This document shows, piece by piece, positions 2,685 to 34,709 of a stretch of DNA of 43,557 nt. The notes below the pieces were generated by a model that was not told the DNA's origin, searched no databases, and saw nothing but the letters and a program-made list of their open reading frames with translations. Each line of letters starts with the position of its first letter. Positions within the stretch are counted from its first letter, which is position 1. Source of the stretch: Ignavibacteriales bacterium (GTDB taxonomy: Bacteria > Bacteroidota > Ignavibacteria > Ignavibacteriales > Melioribacteraceae); contig JAFGID010000185.1 of assembly GCA_016929735.1 (NCBI GenBank), positions 1 through 43,557 on the forward strand, written 5' to 3'. Position numbers and translations under genes: made by a program.

Positions 2685-2722
2685 AAACCCAATTCTTGAT
2701 TATTAGAGTTGGGTTTTATTTT
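2685..2722 (+). terminator. Rho-independent terminator after yidC
   Basis: aaacccaattct / agagttgggttt forms a 12-bp stem with one G-U pair and an 8-nt loop, followed by a T-rich tail. It overlaps the 5' extension of the next ORF in the track, which argues for the later ATG at 2727. Confidence 0.7.
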
Positions 2723-2726
2723 GTGT

Positions 2727-5432
2727 ATGAGAAAAACATTTAAAATATTATTTATTTTTTTATCATTAAATTTTGTATCTTTATCTCAAGATACAATTAC
2801 TCTTTCTCTCAAGTATTCAAACCACCAACTTCCTTTTGGCTTAATAGAAAAAGTACCAAGCAACTCGCCCAATATCGGCTTGGTTTTAAGTGGTGGTGGT
2901 TCGCGTGGAATTGCACACTTAGGCGTAATTAAAGCTTTGGTTGAAAATAATATTCCGATTACTCATATTATCGGAACAAGTATGGGAAGTATTGTCGGTG
3001 GTTTTTTTTCAGCAGGGTATAGTATTGAGGATTTAGATAATTTAATTTCTGAAGCTGATTGGAATCAATTCTTGGCTATAAATGAAACCGAAAGGAAAGA
3101 ATTATTTGTTGACCAAAAAATTACTGAAGACAAAGCAATTTTTGCATTACGTCTTGATGGATTAACACCTGTTTTGCCTACCTCAATAAATTCAGGACAG
3201 AGAGTCGCAAATTTTTTAAATCTTTTATCGTTAAATGCACCGTTGCATAATGAGATAGATTTTTCAAAACTGCTATACAAATTTTCAGCTGTATCAACTG
3301 ATTTGGTAACTGGTAATACAGTCGTAATTAATGACGGTTCATTACCAAAAGCAATACGTGCAAGTTCAAGTGTTTCTTTTTTGTTGGCTCCGGTAAAAAT
3401 GGATTCTTTGCTTCTTATTGATGGAGGATTAGTAGCAAATATTCCAGTTAAAATTGCAAGGGACCAAAAATGCGATATTGTAATAACCTCAAATACGGTT
3501 AGCCCATTACTTGAGCGAGAAGAACTCGATTCACCAATTAATATGGCAGACCAGATACTAAGTATTCCAATGAAAATTATTAATGAGCAAAATTTGGATT
3601 TGTCCGATATTGTGATTAAACCAGATTTAATTGGCAGGAAGAATACCGATTTTACGAATACTACGGAGATGGTAGAGGCTGGTTATTTGGCAACCCTCGA
3701 ACAGTTAGCAGATATTAAAATTATTGTTGAGCACCACTTCAAAGATAATTTGGATGTTGAAGAATTTTTAATTTCCAATCTAACAACCGACTCAAATCCG
3801 ACACAAGAAGAAATTAAGATGTTTGAAAAATATAAAAATAAAGATTCTTTGTCTAACAAAGATTTACTCTTCGAGATTAGCTCAATGATGGAAAGTGGTG
3901 ATTATGAAAATATTAAAATTATACTTTTACCAATTGAAGGACAGACAATATTAAAACTCAACATTTCTGAAAATCCAAAAATTAAATCAATTGAATTAAT
4001 CGGGGCAAATATCATCGAGGAGGATTCAATTTATTCACGACTCAATATTTTAGAAAACAAAGCATTCAACGCAAAGAAAATTCTCTTAGCGCTGCTTGAT
4101 GTATTAAGGTATTATAAATCTGAAGGTTTTTCTCTTGCAGAAATTAACAAAGTGAATTTTATTGAAGAAAGTGGGGAACTTGAGATTTTTTTATCAGAAG
4201 GAATAATATCAGAGATAAAAATTATTGGCAATGAAAAAACTAATCGTGATTTAATTACTCGCGAATTGGATTTTTCAGTTAATTCATATTTTAAATATGA
4301 TGATGCAATAAAAAGTTTGGATAATTTACGAAATACAAGATTGTTCAATGATGTGGAATTATCAATTGAAAAATCAAGTGATAAAAATATAGTTGTCCTA
4401 AAAGTCGAGGAAAAAATAAGTAGTCTTCTTCGCTTTGGACTTAGAGCAGATAATGAATATCTTACACAGATATCAATGGATATAAGGAATGAAAATTTAT
4501 GGGGGAGTGGCACTGAAATAGGAGCAATTATTTCTGCTGGATCAAGAAGTCGAAGTATCATTCTTGAACATAAATCAAACAGATTGTTTGATACGTATAT
4601 CAATTATAGAATTGCTGCTTATCTAAAAGGCGTTGATATTTATACATATAGTGAAGATGTAACAGATAAGCCAACAGTTAATTCAAGAACAAGGTACGGA
4701 GAATATCGACAAACATATCTTGGTGCATCATTGGGTATAGGTTTTAATGTAGGTAAGTTTGGAAATATATTATCTGAATTAAAGTACCAATCAGAGAAAA
4801 TAAGTAACATCAGTAATTTTTTTATTGATTATATGAAGGTTAATATCGCATCATTAAAATTAAGTCTCTTAATTGATACACAAGATAAATATCCCTATCC
4901 TGATAATGGATTCTTAATAAGTGGATATTATGAGATGGCTCAAAAATTTTTCGGCAGTCAATTGGGTTATGTAAAAGCATATTTCGAATATAATGGATAC
5001 TTTAGTTTAAGTAAGTTGTTTACGGTAAAAACAATGTCAAGAATTGGTTATGGAGATAATACTTTACCATACACTCAATATTTTTCTCTTGGGGGGCAGT
5101 ATTCTTTTTTGGGATTAAGAGAATATGAATATGTAGGAAGGCAAATATTCATTTCATCGCTTGGGCTTAAATACAAATTGCCATTTAAAATATTTTTTGA
5201 TAGTTATGCGCAGGTAAGGTATGACCTCGGTTCAGTTTGGGCATATCAGGAACAAATAAGGTTTAAGGATTTGAAGCACGGAATCGGCCTAATTTTATCA
5301 TTTGATACACCTCTCGGGCCTGCTGATTTTTCTGTTGGTAAAAGTTTCTATATAATAAGGTCATTAGCTGATAGTCAAATAAGTTGGGGCCCAACATTTT
5401 TTTATTTTAATATTGGTTATTATCTAAGATGA
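2727..5432 (+). CDS. Patatin-like phospholipase fused to a POTRA + Omp85/surface-antigen (D15) beta-barrel (PlpD-like architecture)
   Basis: Patatin motifs GLVLSGGGSRGIAHLGV and GTSMGSIVG, plus a DGG catalytic-Asp region. The middle holds a POTRA-like segment and the C-terminus is an aromatic-rich beta-barrel. I chose the start at the ATG (MRKTFKILF..., a signal peptide) downstream of the terminator. Confidence 0.8.
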   Translation: MRKTFKILFIFLSLNFVSLSQDTITLSLKYSNHQLPFGLIEKVPSNSPNIGLVLSGGGSRGIAHLGVIKALVENNIPITHIIGTSMGSIVGGFFSAGYSIEDLDNLISEADWNQFLAINETERKELFVDQKITEDKAIFALRLDGLTPVLPTSINSGQRVANFLNLLSLNAPLHNEIDFSKLLYKFSAVSTDLVTGNTVVINDGSLPKAIRASSSVSFLLAPVKMDSLLLIDGGLVANIPVKIARDQKCDIVITSNTVSPLLEREELDSPINMADQILSIPMKIINEQNLDLSDIVIKPDLIGRKNTDFTNTTEMVEAGYLATLEQLADIKIIVEHHFKDNLDVEEFLISNLTTDSNPTQEEIKMFEKYKNKDSLSNKDLLFEISSMMESGDYENIKIILLPIEGQTILKLNISENPKIKSIELIGANIIEEDSIYSRLNILENKAFNAKKILLALLDVLRYYKSEGFSLAEINKVNFIEESGELEIFLSEGIISEIKIIGNEKTNRDLITRELDFSVNSYFKYDDAIKSLDNLRNTRLFNDVELSIEKSSDKNIVVLKVEEKISSLLRFGLRADNEYLTQISMDIRNENLWGSGTEIGAIISAGSRSRSIILEHKSNRLFDTYINYRIAAYLKGVDIYTYSEDVTDKPTVNSRTRYGEYRQTYLGASLGIGFNVGKFGNILSELKYQSEKISNISNFFIDYMKVNIASLKLSLLIDTQDKYPYPDNGFLISGYYEMAQKFFGSQLGYVKAYFEYNGYFSLSKLFTVKTMSRIGYGDNTLPYTQYFSLGGQYSFLGLREYEYVGRQIFISSLGLKYKLPFKIFFDSYAQVRYDLGSVWAYQEQIRFKDLKHGIGLILSFDTPLGPADFSVGKSFYIIRSLADSQISWGPTFFYFNIGYYLR

Positions 5433-8472: not shown

Positions 8473-8582
8473 TTTACAAAATTAAATTTAATTTCTGTAT
8501 GAAAATAACAATATTTTTTTAAATGAAAAATCATACATTATATTATCTTACAAAAATAAAAGTAAAAAAATGGGATAATTTT

Positions 8583-9140
8583 ATGGAAAAGCATATTTGT
8601 CCATTCTGGGTGGGTTATTTTTTAGCATCGCCAATAAGAAAACTGTACCATAATCCGAATAAGATATTATCATCCTATGTCAGACAGAATATGAATGTAA
8701 TTGACATTGGAAGTGCTATGGGTTTTTTCAGTTTACCATTAGCAGAAATGGTCAAACCGAATGGAAAAGTTTTTTGTGTAGATGTCCAAAAAAGGATGCT
8801 TGATGTACTTAAAAAGAAAGCAAAGAAGAAGAAATTGACTGAACAAATAGAGTTTATTTATTGTACTGAGAAAACTTTGGACATCGACCATCTTAAAGAG
8901 CAAATAGATTTTGTGCTTGCCTTTGCTGTATTGCACGAACTACCAGAAACGAAAAAATTTTTCGAGGAAATTTATTCAGTTATGAAAAAAGGAAGTAAAA
9001 TTTTAATTGCCGAACCAAAGGGTCATGTTTCAAATGATGATTTTGAAAGAACTTTATTATTAGCTAAAGAACAAGGTTTTAATATTATTTCTTCACCAAA
9101 AATTGCTAAGAGTCATAGTGTGGTGTTGGATAAGAATTGA
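8583..9140 (+). CDS. Class I SAM-dependent methyltransferase
   Basis: N-terminal CPFWVGYFLASPIRK and SAM motif I VIDIGSAMGFF, followed by an acidic loop. The ORF track starts at 8523. I prefer the ATG at 8583, but the start is uncertain. Confidence 0.75.
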   Translation: MEKHICPFWVGYFLASPIRKLYHNPNKILSSYVRQNMNVIDIGSAMGFFSLPLAEMVKPNGKVFCVDVQKRMLDVLKKKAKKKKLTEQIEFIYCTEKTLDIDHLKEQIDFVLAFAVLHELPETKKFFEEIYSVMKKGSKILIAEPKGHVSNDDFERTLLLAKEQGFNIISSPKIAKSHSVVLDKN

Positions 9141-9255
9141 TTGTGCAAGCAATTTATGATAAATAAAAAATTTTTAGTATTTTTGAAAAAGTTTATACAG
9201 AAATAATGAACATAATAGAATAAACACAATTTATCACAGTCGGTACAATGTAATT

Positions 9256-9768
9256 ATGAAACTTCGAAAAGCCATTTTTGATATTGCAATTTTAATAGCA
9301 TTATTAAGTTGTTCCGAAGATAATAATATTGTTGAATCACAACAAAGTTGGTTATGTGGAACAGTTCCTGATACAAGATGGACACAATATGTGACGAACG
9401 ATAGTCTAATTGGCAGTTGGACTATTACTACAATTCAATATAGCAAAGGTCAAGGACAGGTACATCTCTTTGACACATCTTATAATTTAAACGCACCACT
9501 TATCTTAAATCCATATAATTCAGGAACAATTTACTCCTTACCATTAAATTGGATTCTTACAGCTTCAACATCTAATTCTCCTAGATTAATAATTACAAAT
9601 ATTGATACTTTATTTCCATTTAAAATAAAGTTTATTCATAATAATATCGCAGAAATATATCCGCAATCACCACCTAGCACAAAAATCAATTCGGGCTTCT
9701 TTGCAACTGCAGGAAAAGGTGAAAAAGGTCAATGGGAACAGGTATATATTAGTTTTAGAAGAAATTAA
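9256..9768 (+). CDS. Hypothetical lipoprotein
   Basis: Signal peptide with lipobox LLSC. I recognised no other motif. Confidence 0.5.
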   Translation: MKLRKAIFDIAILIALLSCSEDNNIVESQQSWLCGTVPDTRWTQYVTNDSLIGSWTITTIQYSKGQGQVHLFDTSYNLNAPLILNPYNSGTIYSLPLNWILTASTSNSPRLIITNIDTLFPFKIKFIHNNIAEIYPQSPPSTKINSGFFATAGKGEKGQWEQVYISFRRN

Positions 9769-9947
9769 ACACATAGCATGATGTATCATTATTCCCATTC
9801 ATTAAGAATTATTAAAATCTTATATTAAACTTTTTCTCTTTTTCCTTTGAAAAATCCCTGTTTATTTTTTCTCTTTAAGAAATTTCTATTTTTTCTTTAT
9901 CTTTCCAATGCAAAATTTTATTATTTCAATAAATTTCAAAAACGGTT

Positions 9948-11522
9948 ATGTTAAAAGGAATTTTAATCACACTATTTGCAACAGTTGTTATTTTGATTTT
10001 TGCTAAATCACTTTATGATGAAGGTGAGCAAAATATCAAACTTGAGGAACTAAAACAAAAATATTCGTTAAGAAAGACACCTTCTGTTGACCATTCTAGA
10101 CTGTCTGAATTAAAAAAGAATTTTCGCACACCGCAAGATGTAACTGAAGCATGTAATTCGTGTCATACAGAAAGGCACAAGGAAATTATGTCATCATCTC
10201 ATTGGAATTGGGAACGGGTCTCTTATGTAGAAGGAAGAGGAATAAGATATTCAGGTAAGAGGAATGTCATCAATAATTATTGCATTGGTGCTAGCTCGAA
10301 TGAACTTGCTTGTGCAAGTTGTCATATAGGATTCGGGATGACTAACGATGAATTTGATTTTAAAAATGCCAGGAATGTTGATTGTATGGTTTGCCACGAT
10401 AATAGCGAGGAATATATTAAAGCATCCGCATTGGCAGGCTACCCGGATAGAACGGTGAATCTTACCAAAGTTGCACAAAGTGTTGGATTGCCAAATAAGA
10501 GCAATTGTGGTGCCTGTCATTTTTATAGTGGCGGAGGCAACAACGTAAAGCATGGTGACCTTGAAGAAGCGTTATTTGATTGCAACCGGGATGTTGATGT
10601 TCATATGGCTTCAAATGGAATGGATATGGTTTGCACTGATTGCCATACTGCAGATAAGCATCAGATGCTTGGGAAATTATATTCCGTTTCTTCAGAAAAC
10701 ATTAATCGTTCAAGCTGCGAACAATGTCATACGAACACACCTCATCAGGATAGAATTATAAATTTGCATAATGCAAAAGTAACTTGTCAGGCATGTCATA
10801 TTCCAATTTACGCAAAAGTAAATGCGACAAAAATGGAGTGGTATTGGTCAGAAGCGGGTGACTTAAAAAACAGTGAACCTTATTTTATCGAAGATAGCAT
10901 GGGCAATCATTCATATCTTTCGATAAAAGGAAGATTTGTTTGGAAGAAAAATGTTAAACCGGATTATATATGGTTTAATGGAACTGCCGATCATTATATA
11001 ATAGGTGATACAATTAAAACAGAACCTTTGATTCTAAATCCACTCTACGGTTCTTATGAAGACAAGGATTCAAAATTATATCCGGTTAAAATTCACATTG
11101 GCGACCAGATTTATGATACCAAATATAAAATGCTAATTCAACCAAAACTTTTTTCAGTTGAAAAAGGTGACAGTGGTTTCTGGGGAGACTTTAACTGGAA
11201 ATTGGCTTGCGAAGCAGGAATGAGAATAGTTGGTCTGCCTTTTAGCGGTGAATATGGTTTTGTAAAGACGGAAATGTATTGGCCGGTCAATCATATGGTC
11301 AGTCCAAAGGAACAAGCCGTTACTTGTAATGAATGTCATACCAGAAATAACGGAAGATTGGTAAATGTTACTGGATTTTATTTGCCGAGTAGGGATAAAA
11401 ACAATTTTGTTGATATATTGGGGATTTTAGCAATTGTGTTTTCTATCCTTGGTGTTATTGCTCATGGTGGAATAAGAACTTATCTTGCAATTAAAAACAA
11501 AAGAATAAATATTAACTTTTAA
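9948..11522 (+). CDS. Octaheme c-type cytochrome, tetrathionate reductase (OTR) family, with a C-terminal TM anchor
   Basis: Eight CxxCH motifs: CNSCH, CASCH, CMVCH, CGACH, CTDCH, CEQCH, CQACH, CNECH. Has an N-terminal hydrophobic signal or anchor and a C-terminal hydrophobic helix ILGILAIVFSILGVIAHGG followed by basic residues. Confidence 0.8.
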   Translation: MLKGILITLFATVVILIFAKSLYDEGEQNIKLEELKQKYSLRKTPSVDHSRLSELKKNFRTPQDVTEACNSCHTERHKEIMSSSHWNWERVSYVEGRGIRYSGKRNVINNYCIGASSNELACASCHIGFGMTNDEFDFKNARNVDCMVCHDNSEEYIKASALAGYPDRTVNLTKVAQSVGLPNKSNCGACHFYSGGGNNVKHGDLEEALFDCNRDVDVHMASNGMDMVCTDCHTADKHQMLGKLYSVSSENINRSSCEQCHTNTPHQDRIINLHNAKVTCQACHIPIYAKVNATKMEWYWSEAGDLKNSEPYFIEDSMGNHSYLSIKGRFVWKKNVKPDYIWFNGTADHYIIGDTIKTEPLILNPLYGSYEDKDSKLYPVKIHIGDQIYDTKYKMLIQPKLFSVEKGDSGFWGDFNWKLACEAGMRIVGLPFSGEYGFVKTEMYWPVNHMVSPKEQAVTCNECHTRNNGRLVNVTGFYLPSRDKNNFVDILGILAIVFSILGVIAHGGIRTYLAIKNKRININF

Positions 11523-11531
11523 TAGAATAAA

Positions 11532-12155
11532 ATGAAAAAAGTTTTGATTTACAAACGTTTCGAACGTTTCTGGCATTGGAGTCAGGCGACTCTAATAATT
11601 TTTCTCGGCATTACTGGCTTCGAAGTACACGGCTCACTTGAAATTTTCGGTTTTGAAAAAGCTGTTTTGTATCACAGAATAGCAGCATATTTATTGATTG
11701 CATTAATTATGTTTGCAATTTTCTGGCATATTACTACTGGTGAATGGCGGCAATATATTCCTTCATTTAAAAATTTAAGGGCTCAGATTCAATATTATAC
11801 AAAAGGAATATTTAAGAATGAACCACATCCAACAAAAAAAACAACTTTGTCAAAACTTAATCCGCTTCAAGCATTGACATATCTAATGTTCAAAGTAGTT
11901 CTTATACCTTTGGTTGTTATTACAGGATTGCTTTATATGTACCATCGAACTATTGATGATAATAATGTCGTTGTAGTGAGTGATATCGATTTAGAGTTAA
12001 TAGCAGTTCTACATACATTGGGAGCATTTTTATTAATTGCATTTTTGATTGTTCATGTTTATATGACCACTACTGGAACAACACCTACATCGAATATTAA
12101 GGCAATGTTAACTGGTTATGAAGAATTAGAAGAAGAGGAGAAAAACGATGAATGA
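11532..12155 (+). CDS. Membrane di-heme cytochrome b (FdnI/PhsC/HydC-like quinone-interacting subunit)
   Basis: Opens with RFERFWHWSQA. Four TM helices carry conserved His residues (HW, YHR, HTLG...VHVY). It starts 9 nt after the cytochrome c stop. Confidence 0.75.
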   Translation: MKKVLIYKRFERFWHWSQATLIIFLGITGFEVHGSLEIFGFEKAVLYHRIAAYLLIALIMFAIFWHITTGEWRQYIPSFKNLRAQIQYYTKGIFKNEPHPTKKTTLSKLNPLQALTYLMFKVVLIPLVVITGLLYMYHRTIDDNNVVVVSDIDLELIAVLHTLGAFLLIAFLIVHVYMTTTGTTPTSNIKAMLTGYEELEEEEKNDE

Positions 12156-12666
12156 AAGAAAATATATGAATCCATATCTTGCTGGGGTTCTGTTGGGAAT
12201 ATTATTATTGTTAACTATTTACATTACAGGCAGAGGACTTGGGGCAAGTGGTGGAGTTAAAAGTTTTGTTGCAGGAGCTGTGAAAGTTATTGTTCCATCG
12301 CACTATGACAACACAAAATTTTATCAACAATTGGAAGCAGAAAGTCCGGGAGGACCTTTCAAAGCATGGTTGGGCCTTGAAATATTAGGTGTTCTTATTG
12401 GTGCATTCATCTCTGGGGCAATATCAAACAGATTGGCTTTGAAATTAGAAAAAGGGCCAAGGGTAACAAATAAAATGAGATTGATTGCTGCTGCTATAGG
12501 TGGTTTTCTGTTTGGTCTCGGTGCTTTGATTGGTAGAGGATGCACAAGTGGTGCTGCCTTGAGTGGTATGGCAGTTATGTCGCTTGGTGGCATTTTAACA
12601 ATGTTTGCAATTTTCGGCTCGGCTTATGCAGTCGCTTTTTTTGTAAGAAAATTATGGATTAAATAA
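12148..12666 (+). CDS. YeeE/YedE family sulfur-compound transporter, N-terminal half-size protein
   Basis: Four TM segments and the sulfur-transport motif GRGCTSGAALSGM. It overlaps the cytochrome b gene by 8 nt. Confidence 0.8.
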   Translation: MNERKYMNPYLAGVLLGILLLLTIYITGRGLGASGGVKSFVAGAVKVIVPSHYDNTKFYQQLEAESPGGPFKAWLGLEILGVLIGAFISGAISNRLALKLEKGPRVTNKMRLIAAAIGGFLFGLGALIGRGCTSGAALSGMAVMSLGGILTMFAIFGSAYAVAFFVRKLWIK

Positions 12667-12667
12667 T

Positions 12668-13867
12668 ATGGGACCATTAGTACCTGAAGTATTTAGCAAT
12701 GAATTTAATTTAATCATTGCTTTCGTAGTGGGGATTTGTTTTGGTTTTATTCTTGAACAAGCCGGTTTTTCTTCAACAAGAAAATTAGTTGGATTATTTT
12801 ACGGATATGATTTTACGGTTCTAAAAGTGTTCTTTACTGCAGGTGTTACTGCAATGCTCGGAGTAATTTTATTTTCTCATCTCGGATGGTTAGATTTAAG
12901 TTTGATTTATATTAACCCAACTTTTCTATATTCTGCAATAATCGGTGGTTTAATAATGGGACTTGGATTTATTATTGGTGGGTTCTGTCCTGGAACAAGT
13001 TTTTGTGCTTTGGCAATTGGAAAAATTGATGCTCTTGCATTTGTAATTGGTAGTGCTGTTGGAGTTCTCGCGTTTATGGAAGGATATCCATTATTGGAAG
13101 GTTTGTACAAAGCGGAAAATTGGGGCTCAATTACCTTCCCGCAAATCTTGAATATTTCACCTGTTTTATTTGCTTTGACCATGACGTTGATGGCAATTGG
13201 TGCGTTTTATTTTACTACAAAAATTAAAAAGAAAGTCAATAAGGATAAAACTGAATTAAGTAAAAAACAAATCAGGGGAATTATTGGTTTTGCTATTGTT
13301 CCATTTATAATTTTATTTTATGTTGGAATTACACCAAGTTGGAAAGAGTCCATTTATACCCAGATTTGTAATGAAGAAATACTACAAAAATGTAATTTTC
13401 AAAAGATTTCAACTGATAAGTTAGCCTATGAATTGGTCAACAATTATTACAAAATAAATTTAATTGATGTTAGAACACCTGAAGAATACAAAGAATTTCA
13501 TTTGCCATTAGCGATAAATATTCCGTTAGACAGTATGTTGAATCGTGAATGGAGTGGACTATTCAATCAGGATTTGAAGAAGAATATTTTTTATGCTGAT
13601 ACAATATGCAATGCTAATCGTGCTTGCATTATAGCTAAAAATATTGGAGACTCAGATAATTATATTTTAGTAGATGGTCCATATACATTTCATAATTTAA
13701 TTTTTATTCCTACAAATCCCGGTGGCAATTCATCAAAAGAAGAATTGATGACATATAAGTTTCGGTTACAGGCTGGAAATGATATATTGGAATTGCAGAA
13801 AAAATTGAAGAATATTGGTTCTACCGAAAAAAAACAAGTCAGGAAAGTCAAAGGAGGCTGTGGCTAA
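12668..13867 (+). CDS. YeeE/YedE second half fused to an extra TM helix, a rhodanese-like domain and a C-terminal GGCG tail
   Basis: GGFCPGTSFCALA motif in the transporter half, then a K-rich loop KIKKKVNKDKTELSKKQIR and one more TM segment. The rhodanese-like segment follows (LIDVRTPEEYKEFHLPLAINIPL ... IFYADTICNANRAC). The protein ends in RKVKGGCG. It starts 1 nt after the previous stop. Confidence 0.75.
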   Translation: MGPLVPEVFSNEFNLIIAFVVGICFGFILEQAGFSSTRKLVGLFYGYDFTVLKVFFTAGVTAMLGVILFSHLGWLDLSLIYINPTFLYSAIIGGLIMGLGFIIGGFCPGTSFCALAIGKIDALAFVIGSAVGVLAFMEGYPLLEGLYKAENWGSITFPQILNISPVLFALTMTLMAIGAFYFTTKIKKKVNKDKTELSKKQIRGIIGFAIVPFIILFYVGITPSWKESIYTQICNEEILQKCNFQKISTDKLAYELVNNYYKINLIDVRTPEEYKEFHLPLAINIPLDSMLNREWSGLFNQDLKKNIFYADTICNANRACIIAKNIGDSDNYILVDGPYTFHNLIFIPTNPGGNSSKEELMTYKFRLQAGNDILELQKKLKNIGSTEKKQVRKVKGGCG

Positions 13868-13933
13868 TTTGTATTTGGAACAGAGGGTTAATTAGCAAGT
13901 ATAAGAGCGATAAAATTAAAATATTTAGTAGTT

Positions 13934-15187
13934 ATGAAACAAATCAAATATCTAATATTTATAATTCCCATATTATTATATGGACAAAATAAAATTTTGA
14001 TATATATGGATTTTGAACAGACAGACCATTTGAAAGCATATGGAATTACATATAGTGCATTGAAAGATGGCGCAATTGCGGATTGGTTGTTGAATTATAG
14101 AGGGGGTTCATTTTTAATTGATTATTCCGAAGAACTTGCCTTGAAATGCAGATTAAAAAATGTTTCCTTTGAAGTTGTAACAAGTCAGCAGGTAGTTGAT
14201 TTATATGCTCTGGTCCAGAGTGAGGAACAAAATATGGAAGTAGTCCGATTGGAAAAAGCTCCAAACATTGGAGTATATGTTCCGTCTACTTTCGATCCAT
14301 GGGATGATGCAGTTACTTTAGTGCTTGAATACGCAGAGGTTCCTTATGACAAATTGTGGATTGAAGAAATCTTAAGAGGGGATTTGGAAAAATATGATTG
14401 GCTTCATCTTCATCATGAAGATTTTACGGGGCAGTATGGAAAATTTTACGCAAGTTTTTACAATGCCCAGTGGTATATTGACCAGCAATTACAATACGAA
14501 AATCAAGCAAAAAAATTAGGATTCAAAAAAGTATCAGAGATGTTATTAGCTGTCGTTTTAACAATTAAGCAATATGTAGGGCAGGGAGGGTTTTTATTTG
14601 CGATGTGTTCTGCAACTGATGCTTTTGATATTTCACTTTCCGCACATAATGTTGACTTCATTGAAAAAATGTATGATGGTGATGCTGCAGACCCCGATGC
14701 ACAAAAAAAATTAGATTTCAATAATACTTTTGCTTTTGAAAATTTCAAGTTGGAAATGAATCCAATGATATATGAGTATTCTAATATTGATATTCTACCA
14801 CATGAAATTGGTAACCAAAATAATGATTATTTTACATTATTTGAATTTTCTGCAAAGTATGATCCAGTACCAACTATGCTTATACAAAATCACGTAGGAA
14901 TAATAAAAGGTTTCATGGGACAAACAACTATGTTTCGAAAAAGTGTTATTAAAAAATCTGTTTATATTTTAGCGGAAAGAGCAGGAACTGATCAGGTTAA
15001 ATATATTCATGGAAATTATGGCAGGGGAACATTTACATTCTATGGAGGACATGATCCCGAGGATTATCAGCATTTAGTAGGTGACCCACCAACCGAGTTA
15101 GATATTCATAAAAATTCACCCGGATATCGTTTAATTCTAAATAACATTCTCTATCCAGCGGCGAAAAAGAAAAAGCAAAAAACTTGA
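13934..15187 (+). CDS. Secreted conserved hypothetical protein, possibly with a class-I amidotransferase/ThuA-like fold
   Basis: Has a signal peptide. GGFLFAMCSATD resembles a nucleophile-elbow Cys and the C-terminus is lysine-rich. The functional assignment is weak. Confidence 0.4.
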   Translation: MKQIKYLIFIIPILLYGQNKILIYMDFEQTDHLKAYGITYSALKDGAIADWLLNYRGGSFLIDYSEELALKCRLKNVSFEVVTSQQVVDLYALVQSEEQNMEVVRLEKAPNIGVYVPSTFDPWDDAVTLVLEYAEVPYDKLWIEEILRGDLEKYDWLHLHHEDFTGQYGKFYASFYNAQWYIDQQLQYENQAKKLGFKKVSEMLLAVVLTIKQYVGQGGFLFAMCSATDAFDISLSAHNVDFIEKMYDGDAADPDAQKKLDFNNTFAFENFKLEMNPMIYEYSNIDILPHEIGNQNNDYFTLFEFSAKYDPVPTMLIQNHVGIIKGFMGQTTMFRKSVIKKSVYILAERAGTDQVKYIHGNYGRGTFTFYGGHDPEDYQHLVGDPPTELDIHKNSPGYRLILNNILYPAAKKKKQKT

Positions 15188-29766: not shown

Positions 29767-31833
29767 ATGAAAAAATCTATCTACATTTTTTATATTTCTT
29801 TATTACTTGTAACAAATTGTTTCGGATTTTTTGATTTTAGTTTGCACTTGAATTTTGAATTACAAATTGTTGACACAAATAAAATTCAGGACACGACTTC
29901 TTTGCAGGATACAACAATAAAAATTGATACAACACAACAAGTAAGAGCCGATACACTTTTCCCAATTCAATTTTCAACAATTCAGTCTAAAGCACAATAC
30001 AGCACAATATTACATCGCGAGGAAATAAAATGGTATGATTATCGTTATCTTGGGGATATTTTTTCTTATCTACCTACTGGTTTTTTACAGGATTTAGGTT
30101 CGTTTGGACAACCAAGCGAAATTATTCTTTATGGGCTTGGTCATAATAACATTTCATACATCGCAGATGGAACTCCGATAAATAATAGAATTCAAAATTC
30201 GTTTGATGCAAATAATTTCTCATTAGAAATTATTGATTCACTTGAGGTGGTGCCCTTGCCTCGAGGTTTTCTATATGGTTCCCAAAATAATCCGATTTCA
30301 GTTAATTTTATTACTAAAGATGAAATTTCGCTGAGACCATTTTCGCGAATAAGATTTCATCAAGCACCTTACGAAGAAGGTATGATTGATGCAATGCTCA
30401 ATATGTATCCCTTTAAGAAAGTTAATTTTACTTTTCAACTTAGTAATTCGAGCATAGAACCTGTTGCAAGGTATGCAAGAAATAATTTATATGGTTATTC
30501 AAGTGCAGACGCAGGAATATGGATGCTCAATACAAAAATAAAATATTTTCTTTCTAATAAAATAAATTTTCTCGCTGGTTATCATTGGGTGAGCAGTAAG
30601 GTATTTTTGAATGGTGGGGCAATGAGTACAGATGGTTTAGATGAATTGCCTTACCAAGTGTTTTATGATTCAAGATATCAATTGCAAAACCAACATAATT
30701 TTAATCTTAAAGTTCTCACAAAATTTATAAAGTCCTTCCCCTCAACATTAAATTTGTATTATCACTACAATGAAATTAAATTCAGGCAAAATGAATATGA
30801 AGAAGCGATTGCAACACCAATTATTTTTGATGATAACAAATACCATCTGTTGGGTACCAATTTATACCAAAATCTGAATTTGAAATATTTTAATGGTGAA
30901 ATTATTTTAGGTTATGAATATGCAAAATATAAAACTGACTTATTAAACAATAATGAAAGTATATCAACCTCTTTTCTATCGGGTAAAATTAATTTCCCTT
31001 TAATGAAAGATTTGTTAATACCCAGTGTGTATGGAAAGATTTTATACCAACAAGAAAAAACATATCAGGGGTTGGGTGCTGATGTAAATTTAAATATTTC
31101 CAAGAAAGTAAATTTATATGTAGGCTTTTCATTTTTTGACAGGCCATTAAATATAATCGAAAAATATTTTTCAAATGCAACGATAGAGAAACAAAAATAC
31201 AAGGTATTTGAAATGGGTACCAAAGTAAATTTAGGTAAATTAAAAGCGAGCGCTTCATTTTTCACATCGAAAATAGAAAACAATTCTTTGCCTGTTATAA
31301 ATATTTATTCGGATACACTTCTTGTTACAAATGTTGGTTTTTATACTTTTGTTGAATCGGTACGAAGTGGTGTAAGTATAAATATCAGCTACAGTATATG
31401 GAAATTACTTTTTTCGTTTAACTCAACATACAATTATGCAAATGATGCTGAAAAGCTATATCGTGTTCCAGATATTACAGCAGTTGGTGGTGTTTATTAT
31501 GTTGACACTTTATTTGAGAAAAACTTAAAACTCAAAGCGGGATTAAATTTTAAATATTTCGGTAACAGGGATTATCAAATTTATGATTTTGAAAAAAATA
31601 TTTCTGCTTTGCATTATTTCCATCAATCTTTAGGAAATTTAAATTTTCTAAGTGCCACTTTATTCAAGCCAAAATTTCAAATAGATATTTTTATTGCAGG
31701 ACAAATAAAATCAAATGCAGTTCTATATTTTGTATTTGAAAATTTACTTAATCAAACAAATTATATAATACCATATTATCCCAAGCAGGAGCGAGGTATA
31801 AGATTTGGCTTCTCTTGGCAATTTTTAGATTAG
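29767..31833 (+). CDS. Outer-membrane beta-barrel protein, TonB-dependent-receptor-like (plug + barrel)
   Basis: Signal peptide and a plug-like segment (LGDIFSYLPTGFLQDLGSFGQPSEIILYG...ADGTPINN), then a long Y/F/N/G-rich barrel. It is divergent and I identified no clear TonB box. Confidence 0.6.
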   Translation: MKKSIYIFYISLLLVTNCFGFFDFSLHLNFELQIVDTNKIQDTTSLQDTTIKIDTTQQVRADTLFPIQFSTIQSKAQYSTILHREEIKWYDYRYLGDIFSYLPTGFLQDLGSFGQPSEIILYGLGHNNISYIADGTPINNRIQNSFDANNFSLEIIDSLEVVPLPRGFLYGSQNNPISVNFITKDEISLRPFSRIRFHQAPYEEGMIDAMLNMYPFKKVNFTFQLSNSSIEPVARYARNNLYGYSSADAGIWMLNTKIKYFLSNKINFLAGYHWVSSKVFLNGGAMSTDGLDELPYQVFYDSRYQLQNQHNFNLKVLTKFIKSFPSTLNLYYHYNEIKFRQNEYEEAIATPIIFDDNKYHLLGTNLYQNLNLKYFNGEIILGYEYAKYKTDLLNNNESISTSFLSGKINFPLMKDLLIPSVYGKILYQQEKTYQGLGADVNLNISKKVNLYVGFSFFDRPLNIIEKYFSNATIEKQKYKVFEMGTKVNLGKLKASASFFTSKIENNSLPVINIYSDTLLVTNVGFYTFVESVRSGVSINISYSIWKLLFSFNSTYNYANDAEKLYRVPDITAVGGVYYVDTLFEKNLKLKAGLNFKYFGNRDYQIYDFEKNISALHYFHQSLGNLNFLSATLFKPKFQIDIFIAGQIKSNAVLYFVFENLLNQTNYIIPYYPKQERGIRFGFSWQFLD

Positions 31834-31850
31834 AGATACAGGAGGATAAA

Positions 31851-34682
31851 ATGAAATTGAAAATTTTATTGTTTTTCACCATATTAGTATTGGGAGTTTT
31901 AAAAGGGCAGCTAATCACTTGGACACCTGTTAGTGTTACGGAAGATGATTCTGTCATAGTTTATTTTGATGCCACACAGGGTAGTGGCGGACTTGCCGGC
32001 TATACTGGTGATGTCTATGCTCACACCGGTGTATTAACAGATATTAGTGTAAACACAGGAGATTGGAAAGCAGTCAAAACTAATTGGGGACAAAATACCC
32101 CTGAAACAAAGTGCGAAAGAATAGCACCTGATTTGTATAAATTTGTAATTCGCCCTTCTGTTAAAGAATTTTATCCCCTTGACCCCGATGGTTCTGACGG
32201 AGAAGAATATTTATATATTGCTTTTGTATTTAGAAGTGCAACAAGTCCGTATCTTGAAGGTAAGACAGCTGACGGAGGTGATATATTCTTACCAATGGGA
32301 AGTATTGTTAAAATATTTTCACCAGAGGAAAAAATATTTTTTGTAGAAAGATATGACAATGTAACTATCAAGGCAATTGCTCACGAAAACAGTGATACAC
32401 TTAAATTATTTATAGACGATATCCTCGAAACTTATGTTTTAAGTGATACACTTGATTATATAATTTCCGCAGATGACTATGGAATTAAAAATGTAAAAGT
32501 GTCTGCATTCAATGACTCCGGATTTTTGGGCTCTGATTCATTCGCTTATGTGGTAAGTCCCCCGGTAACAAAAGAAAATTTACCTGCTAGCGTTTGTCAG
32601 GGAATAAACTATACAAGTGATACTTCTGTTGTGCTTGTTTTGTTTGCACCAAACAAGAAGAATGCTTTTGTGCTTGGTGATTTTAATGATTGGAAGGTTA
32701 ATTTAAATTATTATATGAAAAGGACACTTGACGATTCAACTTACTGGTTGCAAATTAATGGTCTAAATGTCGGAGAAGAATATGCATATCAGTATTTGGT
32801 TGACGAAGAATTATTCATTGCAGACCCTTACACAGATAAAATTCTCGATCCTTGGAATGATAAATATATCACAAGTGCAACTTACCCCGACTTAAAAGCA
32901 TATCCAACAGGAAAAGCAACGGGAATCGTTTCTGTATTGCAAACTGCACAAACTCCTCATGTATGGAATGATTCAAGTTTTATTCGTCCAGCTAAAACTG
33001 ATTTGGTGATTTACGAATTGTTGATTCGTGATTTCAGAAGTCAACATACTTTCCAATCTGTGATTGATAGTATTCCATATCTCAAACGGCTTGGTGTTAA
33101 TGCAATTGAATTGATGCCTGTAAATGAATTTGAAGGGAACAATAGTTGGGGTTATAATCCATCATTCTATTTTGCTCCAGATAAATATTATGGACCGAAA
33201 AATAAGCTTAAAGAACTGATTGATGTTTGTCATCAAAATGGAATTGCAGTTATTATGGATATTGTTTTAAATCATTCTTATGGTCAATCTCCACTTGTTA
33301 AACTTTATTGGGATGAAGTTAATAACCGACCGGCACCTGATAATCTTTGGTATAATTTTGTATCGCCTAATCCTGTTTATTCATGGGGATATGATTTCAA
33401 TCATCAGAGTCCTCATACAAAAGCGTTTGTTGATAGCGTGAATAAATATTGGTTAATTGAATATCATTTTGATGGTTTTAGATTTGATTTTACAAAGGGA
33501 TTTACAAATACCCCGGGTGACGGAAGTGGTTATGATTTACAAAGAATTAATATACTAAAAAGAATGGCTGATAAAATCTACGAAATTGATTCTACATATT
33601 ATGTTATACTAGAACATTTTGCTCCTAATACTGAAGAGATTGTATTATCTGATTATGGAATGATGTTGTGGGGAAATATGAATTATAATTACGGTGAAGC
33701 TTCAATGGGTTGGAATCAGAGCGGAAAATCAAATTTTCAAGGAGTTTCTTATAAATATAGAAACTGGAATTTCCCCCATCTTGTTGGCTATATGGAAAGT
33801 CACGATGAAGAAAGAATTATGTATAAAAATTTGAATTATGGAAATCTAAGTGGAACATACAATATAAAAAATTCTACAACGGCACTGAACCGCATAAAAT
33901 TGATATCAGCGTTTTTCTTTACTATTCCAGGACCTAAAATGATCTGGCAGTTTGAAGAACTCGGCTACGATTACTCAATTGATTACAACGGCAGAACAGG
34001 TGAAAAACCAATTCGTTGGGATTACTATCAGAATACAGAAAGAAAAAAGTTGTACAAGACGATGAAAGAATTAATTAATTTGAAGAAGAATTACGAAGTA
34101 TTTCGAACAGCCGATTTTTGGATTGATGTGGCAGATGAAACAAAAGAGATACATCTTAATCATCCGACTATGAATGTAACAATTCTCGGAAATTTCGATG
34201 TAATAAATCAATCAATGATACCAAATTTTCAGCATACAGGAACGTGGTATGAATTTTTTCGAGGCGATAGTATAATAGTTGCTGATACAGCTGCTTTAGT
34301 ATTTTTGAAACCCGGTGAATTCAGAATTTATACAACTGTTAAATTACCAACACCCGAAGAAGGAATTGCGACTGATATTAAAATATTAAAAGCAGAAATT
34401 ATAGAAGAATATCGGCTTGAACAGAACTATCCTAATCCATTTAATCCGAAAACTTTAATCCGCTATGCAATACCGTTAGATGTCAAAGGAAAAACGTCAA
34501 ATGTTTTATTGAAGGTTTATGATATTCTTGGACAAGAAGTTACAACTTTGGTTAATGAAGAAAAAGCTCCGGGAATTTACCAAGTTGAATTTAATGCAGG
34601 CAATTTAACAAGTGGAATCTATATGTACAGAATACAGGTGAATGATATTTTAATAACTAAGAAAATGATTTTGTTGAAGTGA
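31851..34682 (+). CDS. GH13 alpha-amylase-family glycosidase with N-terminal binding modules and a T9SS C-terminal sorting domain
   Basis: GH13 regions GVNAIELMPVNEF, DIVLNHS, GFRFDFTKG, LEHF and YMESHDEER, plus a CBM48/E-set-like segment (FAPNKKNAFVLGDFNDW). The C-terminal NYPNPFNPKT...VYDILGQEV...SGIYMYRI is T9SS CTD-type. The start is set at the ATG preceded by ggagga. Confidence 0.85.
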   Translation: MKLKILLFFTILVLGVLKGQLITWTPVSVTEDDSVIVYFDATQGSGGLAGYTGDVYAHTGVLTDISVNTGDWKAVKTNWGQNTPETKCERIAPDLYKFVIRPSVKEFYPLDPDGSDGEEYLYIAFVFRSATSPYLEGKTADGGDIFLPMGSIVKIFSPEEKIFFVERYDNVTIKAIAHENSDTLKLFIDDILETYVLSDTLDYIISADDYGIKNVKVSAFNDSGFLGSDSFAYVVSPPVTKENLPASVCQGINYTSDTSVVLVLFAPNKKNAFVLGDFNDWKVNLNYYMKRTLDDSTYWLQINGLNVGEEYAYQYLVDEELFIADPYTDKILDPWNDKYITSATYPDLKAYPTGKATGIVSVLQTAQTPHVWNDSSFIRPAKTDLVIYELLIRDFRSQHTFQSVIDSIPYLKRLGVNAIELMPVNEFEGNNSWGYNPSFYFAPDKYYGPKNKLKELIDVCHQNGIAVIMDIVLNHSYGQSPLVKLYWDEVNNRPAPDNLWYNFVSPNPVYSWGYDFNHQSPHTKAFVDSVNKYWLIEYHFDGFRFDFTKGFTNTPGDGSGYDLQRINILKRMADKIYEIDSTYYVILEHFAPNTEEIVLSDYGMMLWGNMNYNYGEASMGWNQSGKSNFQGVSYKYRNWNFPHLVGYMESHDEERIMYKNLNYGNLSGTYNIKNSTTALNRIKLISAFFFTIPGPKMIWQFEELGYDYSIDYNGRTGEKPIRWDYYQNTERKKLYKTMKELINLKKNYEVFRTADFWIDVADETKEIHLNHPTMNVTILGNFDVINQSMIPNFQHTGTWYEFFRGDSIIVADTAALVFLKPGEFRIYTTVKLPTPEEGIATDIKILKAEIIEEYRLEQNYPNPFNPKTLIRYAIPLDVKGKTSNVLLKVYDILGQEVTTLVNEEKAPGIYQVEFNAGNLTSGIYMYRIQVNDILITKKMILLK

Positions 34683-34709
34683 TTAATAACAAATTAATAT
34701 ATTTAAATT

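Follow-up and report, generated by a model that had tools for sequence, protein, structure and literature searches.

Since its structure was solved in 2004, it has been unclear what the octaheme tetrathionate reductase (OTR) does in vivo, as tetrathionate, nitrite and hydroxylamine are all reduced by the purified enzyme. Nevertheless, 'otr' is routinely scored in metagenomes as a marker of tetrathionate reduction (e.g. PMC9040765). What the family does in the cell is a question raised by contig JAFGID010000185.1 of an Ignavibacteriales bacterium of the Melioribacteraceae (GenBank assembly GCA_016929735.1), analysed over its whole length of 43,557 nucleotides and referred to here as the window. 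In it, a gene for a membrane-anchored OTR-family cytochrome is directly followed by genes for a cytochrome b and for the two halves of a YeeE/YedE-type sulfur channel, the second of which carries a rhodanese-like domain and a conserved C-terminal cysteine. The answer favoured here, whose chances are put a little short of even, is that the four genes would encode a single complex of the cytoplasmic membrane, linking the quinone pool with sulfur chemistry carried out in the periplasm on a tethered carrier cysteine. The cassette consists of the following open reading frames (ORFs):

9948-11522, + strand: gene 1, OTR-family octaheme c-type cytochrome of 524 aa (assigned by its CxxCH count, TIGR04315 and the alignment to 1SP3)
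11532-12155, + strand: gene 2, PF01292 di-heme cytochrome b (FdnI/HyaC/PhsC type) of 207 aa, with a presumed quinol/quinone site
12148-12666, + strand: gene 3, PmpA/YedE1-like half channel of 172 aa with four transmembrane (TM) helices, predicted N-in/C-in, matching positions 174-308 of the Sulf_transp profile
12668-13867, + strand: gene 4, 399 aa, PmpB/YedE2-like half channel with a C-terminal extension

The junctions between genes 1-2, 2-3 and 3-4 measure 9, -8 (the overlap ATGAATGA) and 1 nt. The earlier note on this DNA, made from the letters and ORF translations without database searches, had taken this spacing as a sign of operon-like coupling, and had set co-occurrence across lineages beforehand as a test. 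Gene order was checked in 80 loci kept from a scan of one genome per GTDB species, in which at least 583 cassette-like stretches were found, plus three further loci (L001-L003). The four genes are complete and in the same order in 77 of the 77 loci with enough upstream DNA, the six exceptions ending at a contig edge, so that the coupling is backed by conservation in several phyla amid unrelated flanks and is not a property of one genome. A Zixibacteria chromosome, a Prolixibacteraceae chromosome and a Fibrobacteria metagenome-assembled genome (MAG) illustrate this, with the same four genes in the same order and unrelated surroundings.

A search with gene 4 retrieved more than 2,500 relatives. 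The 120 best share 52-59% identity with it, and almost all of them have 397-400 aa. The family as a whole (PmpB-like half, rhodanese fold and GGC end) is matched by about 216 clusters at 50% identity (E <= 1e-30). The linkage of the genes persists where gene 4 identity has dropped to 36-45%. Among the matches listed, most of them from the FCB group, the hosts are mainly Bacteroidota (Prolixibacteraceae, Lentimicrobiaceae, Salinivirgaceae, Lutibacter and others), to which Marinimicrobia, Fibrobacteria and Zixibacteria are added, and OTR matches extend them to Ignavibacteria and Melioribacteraceae. Cultured hosts are Mariniphaga anaerophila DSM 26910, Roseimarinus sediminis DSM 28824, Tangfeifania diversioriginum DSM 27063, Gaoshiqia hydrogeniformans Z1-71, a Lutibacter isolate and a Saccharicrinis isolate. 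Hundreds of genomes of sediment and gut-type bacteria share the cassette. All-against-all clustering of the flanking ORFs of about 80 cassettes revealed no recurrent fifth gene (regulator, TusA/YeeD, SoxYZ or ccm), the most frequent neighbour being found at 12 loci. Metagenomes were sampled through the 80 OTR loci closest to 1SP3: channel genes are present in 21 of the more distant of these, and the Shewanella-like OTRs among them (54-91% identity) have neither a cytochrome b nor a channel within about 7 kb downstream.

Profile searches confirmed all four family assignments, with scores far beyond chance. Gene 1 starts with a signal or anchor segment (aa 1-21) and contains exactly eight CxxCH motifs, at residues 69, 122, 146, 187, 229, 257, 280 and 460, and no CxxCK motif. 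Its match to TIGR04315 ('tetrathionate reductase family octaheme c-type cytochrome') reaches 557.3 bits, with a cutoff of 375, and covers model positions 1-440 of 440; the match to the Shewanella OTR structure 1SP3 has an E value of 2e-127 over residues 55-468, with 47% identity in a MAFFT alignment. These results uphold the OTR assignment, which had first been read from the heme motifs and the size of the protein. Two elements of gene 1 deserve a closer description:

10257-10259, + strand: codon of Lys104, aligned with K56 of 1SP3 in a 'GKKN/GKRN' string
11403-11474, + strand: C-terminal TM helix (aa 486-509) with a basic tail after it, outside the region matched by TIGR04315 and 1SP3

Lys56 of the Shewanella enzyme is said, in the 2004 work of Mowat and colleagues, to ligate the active-site heme, which would make it an unusual lysine ligand. 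Its counterpart Lys104 is invariant in an alignment of 121 homologues of 515-552 aa (121/121), which points to preservation of this ligand in gene 1, and the nearby Cys112 is also conserved with Shewanella OTR. Judged by these features, gene 1 is a true OTR-family octaheme cytochrome. Shewanella oneidensis OTR (SO_4144, 1SP3) thus has in common with gene 1 the eight CxxCH motifs, the Lys56 equivalent and Cys112, but it is a soluble enzyme, whereas gene 1 possesses an anchor helix with an invariant His and a nearby Arg and is always found in the four-gene cassette.

This anchor, already recognised in the earlier note as a hydrophobic helix with basic residues after it, stands up to comparison. 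The helix is followed by the residues RTYLAIKNKR; His506 (11463-11465) is invariant in 121 of 121 sequences, and the column of Arg510 is at least 98% conserved. The same H-x-x-x-R helix appears on other proteins. A five-gene variant of the cassette, found at locus L085 and about ten metagenomic loci, encodes a soluble OTR, a 7-heme cytochrome, a cytochrome b, a PmpA-like protein and a gene 4-like protein, and there the helix is carried by the separate 7-heme cytochrome; in two-gene loci made up of OTR and cytochrome b, it is again carried by the OTR. Examples are:

L085, 4043-5776: MmcA-like 7-heme cytochrome with the H-x-x-x-R helix, in a five-gene variant
L142, 6800-8464: OTR with the H-x-x-x-R helix, in a two-gene OTR and cytochrome b locus

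Its recurrence on one or the other cytochrome is read as that of a portable helix docking on cytochrome b. In FdnH and in HyaA, the hydrogenase small subunit, a single C-terminal helix anchors on cytochromes b of the same family, and by analogy the C-terminal helix of gene 1, with His506 and Arg510, would dock the OTR on the cytochrome b. The helix may also provide the cytochrome b with a heme or quinone-site ligand.

The presumed docking partner, gene 2, scores 96.7 bits against PF01292 (cutoff 30.1), and its best NCBIfam match is PhsC (NF011582, thiosulfate reductase cytochrome b) at 115.2 bits, below the cutoff of 204. By these scores it belongs to PF01292 and falls outside the PhsC equivalog, in line with the FdnI/PhsC-type di-heme cytochrome b that had been proposed. 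His15, His66, His161 and His175, as well as His33, His48 and His99, are kept in 72-77 of 77 orthologues, and the first four are assigned, by analogy with FdnI, as the probable canonical heme ligands. The likeness to PhsC, FdnI and HyaC lies in a four-helix di-heme b with conserved His ligands and a redox partner held by one C-terminal helix; the difference is that the partner here is an octaheme c-type cytochrome, and theirs an Fe-S subunit. Within the five-gene variants, no cytochrome b was detectable at L134 and L148. Coupling to the quinone pool via the cytochrome b, as the earlier note had it, is the natural reading, and a quinol-linked reductase 'Otr + cytochrome b561' has been predicted once before, in an Ignavibacteriae MAG (PMC7509429).

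Regarding the other half of the cassette, genes 3 and 4 are complementary halves of a YeeE/YedE channel, with the C-half homologue encoded first. Residues 73-158 of gene 3 align to residues 239-320 of YeeE from S. thermophila (StYeeE), placing Cys132 on Cys293, and Cys132 (12541-12543), within the motif GRGCTSG, is invariant in 78 of 78 sequences. Cys293 of StYeeE is essential and lies at the outer mouth of the channel (PMC7449682). In gene 4, Cys107 (12986-12988), within GGFCPGTSxC, is present in 120 of 120 relatives and Cys113 in 119 of them; a phmmer search of the membrane part against the PDB gave nothing at E <= 1, and the N-half assignment rests on Pfam coordinates and motifs. The proposal of two separately encoded halves is accordingly borne out by the complementary Sulf_transp coordinates, except for their order, as gene 3 is the homologue of the C-half and gene 4 that of the N-half. 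A split YeeE is not a new arrangement either, since it has been described as PmpA (C-half) and PmpB (N-half), equal to YedE1E2, with one conserved Cys each (PMC11582611). Nor does the thiosulfate-uptake type suggested for the channel agree with experiment: the YedE1E2 pair brought zero-valent sulfur, not thiosulfate, into E. coli in a cysteine-dependent manner, and full-length YedE3 (YeeE), unlike YedE1E2, took up no zero-valent sulfur (PMC10812762).

The resemblance to PmpAB/YedE1E2 extends to the adjacent genes, the C-half-like gene in first place, about four TM helices per half and one conserved, essential-type Cys in each. The PmpAB halves, however, have about 130-140 aa, four TM helices and no H7, whereas gene 4 has 399 aa; beyond PmpB it possesses an H7-like helix, a further (sixth) helix and a soluble domain of about 175 aa, with a predicted periplasmic rhodanese fold and the GGC tail, about 260 extra residues altogether. 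PmpAB is moreover linked to persulfide dioxygenase or ArsR-type regulators, and the cassette channel to a respiratory-type cytochrome. The thiosulfate importer TsuA/YeeE with its partner YeeD/TsuB (6LEO, 8J4C) belongs to the same fold family, shows the Cys132/Cys293 match and also depends on a cysteine-bearing channel partner, but TsuA is one chain of about 330-350 aa with nine TM helices, three conserved Cys and a cytoplasmic TusA-like partner, and the cassette channel is made from two genes. The TsuA model NF052577 gives 50.4 bits with gene 3 and 20.8 with gene 4 (cutoff 400), NF041049 gives 17.7 bits (cutoff 645), and the first TsuA/YeeE Cys, corresponding to gene 4 position 24, is replaced by Gly or Ala in 115 of the 120 relatives. 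No cytoplasmic TusA-like partner (YeeD/TsuB) was found in the window flanks or among the recurrent neighbours of about 80 loci.

From the N- to the C-terminus, the gene 4 protein is divided as follows:

12668-13222, + strand: membrane core, PmpB/YedE2-like half channel (YeeE H1-H6, Sulf_transp positions 4-177) plus an H7-like fifth helix, aa 165-185
13223-13336, + strand: Lys-rich loop, aa 186-204 (predicted cytoplasmic), and sixth TM helix, aa 205-223, by which the chain would return to the periplasm
13400-13717, + strand: rhodanese-fold domain, about aa 245-350, predicted periplasmic, with a putative Cys242-Cys320 disulfide (Pfam, AlphaFold, Foldseek)
13736-13864, + strand: long helix and flexible basic tail ending ...KVKGGCG, with Cys398 (13859-13861) as the proposed carrier cysteine

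In YeeE, the N-terminus is outside and the C-terminus inside, and H1-H6 and H8-H13 have opposite topology because H7 crosses the membrane once (PMC7449682). Since the Pfam match of gene 4 spans the H7 region, its fifth helix would end in the cytoplasm, at the Lys-rich loop (mean K+R 5.2 versus D+E 1.6), and the extra sixth helix would lead the chain back out, so that the rhodanese-like domain would share the periplasm with the cytochrome c. The AlphaFold model has a hydrophobic helix at 199-221, next to an invariant Pro223. Summed per sequence, K+R averages 8.2 for the loops predicted to be cytoplasmic and 1.5 for those predicted to be periplasmic plus the N-terminus. Independent support comes from positions 242 and 320: Cys occupies both in 104 of the 120 sequences and neither in the other 16, and no sequence keeps just one, a perfect covariation of the kind expected of a structural disulfide. 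Taken together, YeeE homology, positive-inside counts and Cys242/Cys320 covariation make it very probable that the rhodanese-like domain faces the periplasm.

The fold of this domain is that of a rhodanese. Residues 261-330 match Rhodanese PF00581 at 28.7 bits (cutoff 22.2), the domain is modelled at a pLDDT of about 90, and Foldseek finds single-domain PDB rhodaneses, with a probability of 1.0 and target-normalised TM-scores of 0.66 to RDL2 and 0.66 to YgaP. In GlpE and PspE, the catalytic Cys sits directly after the central strand. In the gene 4 model, this strand comprises residues 305-309, the next helix starts at 313 and the residue after the strand is Ala310 (13595-13597); among 120 relatives, position 310 is Ala in 110, Ser in nine and Gly in one, and it is almost never Cys among some 90 diverse representatives, a catalytic Cys being present only in the distant P0249 and P0271 ('VLYC'). 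With Ala310 at the canonical position, the domain is unlikely to be a classical sulfurtransferase. The rhodanese fold described in the earlier note for the second half of the channel is retained, its role as a sulfurtransferase is unlikely, and the idea that it takes the place of the TusA-like partner meets the difficulty that it is predicted to be periplasmic rather than cytoplasmic.

The window protein has, for its part, a Cys314 in a PspE-like 'CNANR' string (loop 13607-13621, aa 314-318), which it alone possesses among 120 relatives. HMMER pairs this residue ('CNANRAC') with the PspE Cys, but it lies four residues out of the strand register, also when checked against P0249 and P0271, which retain 'VLYC' at the catalytic position, and it was rejected as the catalytic Cys; it may represent a reactive cysteine that this lineage has regained or relocated.

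These data bear directly on the scheme put forward in the earlier note, in which OTR and cytochrome b make thiosulfate from tetrathionate, the split YeeE imports it and a cytoplasmic, active rhodanese replaces TusA/YeeD in stripping off the sulfane sulfur. Its family assignments stand, the YeeE/TsuA thiosulfate importer requires a cysteine-bearing partner, natural YeeE-YeeD fusions exist, and Cys314 would supply a PspE-like active site in the window protein. Against this, the domain would come to lie outside through the additional helix that follows the H7-like one, in agreement with loop charges and the 242/320 covariation, Ala310 occupies the catalytic position while Cys314 occurs in one relative out of 120, the TsuA models score far under their cutoffs, and zero-valent sulfur is taken up by split YedE1E2 and not by full-length YedE3. 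The scheme is considered improbable.

What is conserved in the extension, and had been overlooked, is its C-terminal ...GGC(S/G) tail. It is found in 119 of the 120 close relatives of gene 4, in the forms GGC, GGCS or GGCG, in the majority of some 90 representatives that are 31-53% identical (GGC, GGCG, GGCS, EGC, RGC) and in every gene 4-type ORF of the metagenome loci. In the AlphaFold model the tail has a pLDDT below 50. The only other ORFs ending in GGC(xx) in the 80 metagenomic OTR loci are split C-terminal pieces of the gene 4 type and three stray ORFs, two of them of about 70 aa. In some five-gene variants gene 4 is split again, into a PmpB-like half of about 190 aa and a protein of about 210 aa ending in GGCG:

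L148, 3747-4990: split gene 4
L158, 8868-10093: split gene 4

In SoxY (GGCGG) and DsrC, a flexible C-terminal Cys arm carries covalently bound sulfur into enzyme active sites. The likeness of gene 4 to SoxY comprises the GGCG(G) end, the periplasmic location, which in gene 4 is predicted, and a c-type cytochrome partner, and it is a likeness at the motif level only. The body of gene 4 is a rhodanese fold fused to a channel rather than an Ig-like SoxY or a DsrC fold. Neither SoxY nor SoxZ is among the Pfam and NCBIfam matches of the cassette proteins. A second precedent is Sud of Wolinella succinogenes, a periplasmic rhodanese-fold protein that offers sulfane sulfur to the quinol-linked PsrABC. 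Sud similarly combines a periplasmic rhodanese fold with service to a quinol-linked reductase, and one sister module of the cassette channel, described below, follows a PhsA/PsrB/NrfD-type operon; Sud is, however, soluble and has a canonical Cys in its active-site loop, whereas in gene 4 the domain is tethered to the membrane and its conserved Cys is C-terminal. In lucinid symbionts, variant soxY genes are reported to adjoin otr (PMC11237559), and no SoxY-like genes occur near Shewanella-type OTRs in the sample of 80 metagenomic OTR loci.

From these elements, a mechanism can be proposed for the complex. The OTR, held on the cytochrome b by its helix, would exchange electrons with the quinone pool, and the tail Cys of gene 4 would act as a swinging arm, binding the sulfur substrate or product covalently at the OTR active site as a persulfide, polysulfide or thiosulfonate. 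The arm would then pass the sulfur to Cys132 of gene 3 at the channel mouth, from which the channel cysteines may relay it inward, as in YedE1E2. In the preferred direction, electrons would flow from quinol through cytochrome b to OTR, and an S-S compound (tetrathionate, polysulfide or derived from thiosulfate) would be cleaved reductively and captured on the arm, so that sulfane sulfur or thiosulfate is retained there and then imported. The contact between arm, OTR and channel that this requires is inferred from the arrangement of the parts.

The channel also has sister modules, in which a PmpA-like protein and a PmpB-rhodanese protein with an [E/R]GC tail occur in two contexts. In the first, they come straight after two-domain rhodaneses that have a signal peptide and, as their catalytic loop, 'YCGTG' or 'YCHVG', and are often followed by an Aminotran_5 gene. 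In the second, known from the single locus L167, they come after a PhsA-like molybdoenzyme, a PsrB/TtrB-like Fe-S protein and an NrfD-like subunit:

L168, 666-3345: secreted rhodanese, PmpA-like, PmpB-Rhd-...[E/R]GC
L173, 6599-10549: secreted rhodanese, PmpA-like, PmpB-Rhd-...[E/R]GC
L172, 282-3792: secreted rhodanese, PmpA-like, PmpB-Rhd-...[E/R]GC
L167, 1-6334: PhsA-like operon, PmpA-like, PmpB-Rhd-...EGC, pyridine-nucleotide-disulfide oxidoreductase

The rhodanese-linked modules are a candidate periplasm-to-cytoplasm route of sulfane-sulfur assimilation, and at L167 the same carrier and channel module stands on a non-homologous sulfur reductase. The recurrence of the module beside periplasmic enzymes that make or break S-S bonds fits a periplasmic arm and a role in sulfur rather than nitrogen metabolism, and the sulfur link that had been suggested for the OTR cassette is strengthened by it. 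A broader generalisation, that PmpA and PmpB-rhodanese-GGC constitute an unrecognised modular tethered arm and cysteine-relay channel plugging varied periplasmic S-S enzymes into the cytoplasm, with OTR and cytochrome b as the enzyme in this cassette and PhsA-type molybdoenzymes or secreted rhodaneses in other settings, is possible but doubtful.

The sister modules also furnish part of the case for selenium or tellurium handling, in which OTR would reduce selenite or tellurite, the arm Cys would take up selenium as a selenopersulfide and the YedE-like channel would import it. The rhodanese of a sister module matches ExtH at 72.8 bits, and the Aminotran_5 genes that come after sister modules belong to a family that includes selenocysteine lyases; in the cassette, gene 3 weakly matches selen_YedE_FdhT (37.7 bits) and the domain of gene 4 the rhodanese region of MnmH (28.7 bits). 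YedE relatives have, in addition, been implicated in selenium transport by work cited in PMC11582611. The scores for selen_YedE_FdhT, MnmH and ExtH are nevertheless far under the cutoffs of 350, 266 and 200, respectively, no selD or selA is present in the window or in the conserved flanks, and a methyltransferase encoded upstream of the cassette (8523-9140) is not a conserved neighbour in other genomes. Selenium handling is thus regarded as very improbable.

Several points weigh against the preferred reading of one sulfur-handling, quinone-coupled complex. The segment right after helix 6 of gene 4 is also Lys/Arg-rich (5.5 K+R), so that the positive-inside rule alone does not fix helix 6, and AlphaFold models the membrane part of gene 4 poorly, with a pLDDT of 36-65 over most of residues 1-160. 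The sister module linked to a PhsA-like enzyme is known from one locus. Some pairs of OTR and cytochrome b, as at L142, lack the channel, which means that the redox module can work alone. Furthermore, purified Shewanella OTR reduces nitrite and hydroxylamine as well (Atkinson 2007, as cited in PMC11237559). The last two points underlie a nitrogen role, in which OTR and cytochrome b would be a quinol:nitrite or quinol:hydroxylamine reductase and the channel genes unrelated passengers, and genome papers do invoke Otr for nitrite reduction. Passengers would hardly be expected at 77 of 77 loci, across phyla and in two architectures, or to pair elsewhere with rhodaneses and a PhsA-like enzyme, and this role is deemed most improbable.

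The remaining point concerns the direction of electron flow. PF01292 cytochromes b more often carry electrons from a periplasmic donor to quinone than the other way, as those of formate dehydrogenase N (Fdn) and [NiFe] hydrogenase (Hya) do with the electrons of periplasmic oxidations, and this habit makes the oxidative direction a real option. In such a version of the mechanism, OTR would form an arm persulfide from sulfide, or a thiosulfonate from thiosulfate in the manner of SoxXA, the electrons would pass through cytochrome b to menaquinone and the loaded sulfur would be imported. The tail does resemble the GGCGG arm of SoxY, which is loaded oxidatively by a c-type cytochrome, the conversion of sulfide to persulfide is thermodynamically downhill to menaquinone, and the hosts inhabit sulfidic sediments (including the Zodletone MAGs). 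The thiosulfate/tetrathionate-type couple, on the other hand, reportedly lies at about +200 mV (a value attributed to Kurth and colleagues, 2015), and its electrons would have to travel uphill to menaquinone. OTR is known solely as a reductase, gene 2 is nearest to PhsC, a subunit working in the reductive direction, and the sole molybdoenzyme partner found for the channel module is PhsA-like; for these reasons the reductive direction is somewhat favoured over the oxidative one, and the oxidative version as a whole is held to be unlikely.

The presumed promoter region of the cassette is the following:

9769-9947, + strand: AT-rich intergenic stretch of 179 nt between the preceding ORF and gene 1

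A sigma-70 promoter and terminator scan of 9100-14300 found 19 sites, with 24.9 expected in shuffled sequence, promoters of the FCB group lying outside the consensus of the scan. The cassette is flanked by ORFs at 9256-9768 (170 aa, lipoprotein-like N-terminus) and 13934-15187 (417 aa, signal-like N-terminus), for which no Pfam or NCBIfam match was obtained and which are not kept beside the cassette in other genomes. The methyltransferase at 8523-9140, two genes upstream of the cassette, is of the S-adenosylmethionine-dependent type (Methyltransf_31), with weak ArsM-like and UbiE-like matches. The window is otherwise ordinary chromosome, encoding YidC, MlaE, TonB-dependent receptors and peptidases with sorting domains of the type IX secretion system (T9SS), and no tRNA genes were found in it. 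In a protein of 907 aa (2709-5432), a patatin-like phospholipase domain is joined to POTRA and Omp85 domains, and 31815-36788 encodes an alpha-amylase/CBM48 protein and an M28 peptidase, each with a T9SS C-terminal sorting domain at its end. The sorting domains on these two proteins indicate a host with a type IX secretion system, of the FCB group.

As to novelty, neither the four-gene cassette nor the PmpB-rhodanese-GGC family was found described in the literature searched; what was found comprised Otr as a marker gene, the single remark on Otr with cytochrome b561 and the soxY genes adjoining otr. Within that literature the combination is not previously described, as had been supposed, and the cassette is rated as an undescribed, widespread assembly of known families with a new tethered-carrier element, and not as categorically new. 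It brings to attention a widespread and unstudied protein family, in which a PmpB-like half channel is joined to a rhodanese fold and a GGC end, and its presence in cultured strains makes genetics and biochemistry feasible.

If the broader generalisation to a modular arm and channel is true, sulfur would not pass the membrane as a free ion but through a series of intermediates bound covalently to protein, and what the OTR family acts on physiologically in most bacteria would be sulfur attached to a protein, not free tetrathionate. Many of the sampled OTR genes stand in a cassette of fixed composition, together with a cytochrome b and a sulfur channel that has a predicted periplasmic carrier cysteine, on the basis of the 77 informative loci, all found via gene 4, and of 21 of the 80 metagenomic OTR loci nearest the Shewanella enzyme. 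This gives them a concrete and testable sulfur context, and the cassette may show the cellular role of the OTR enzyme family.

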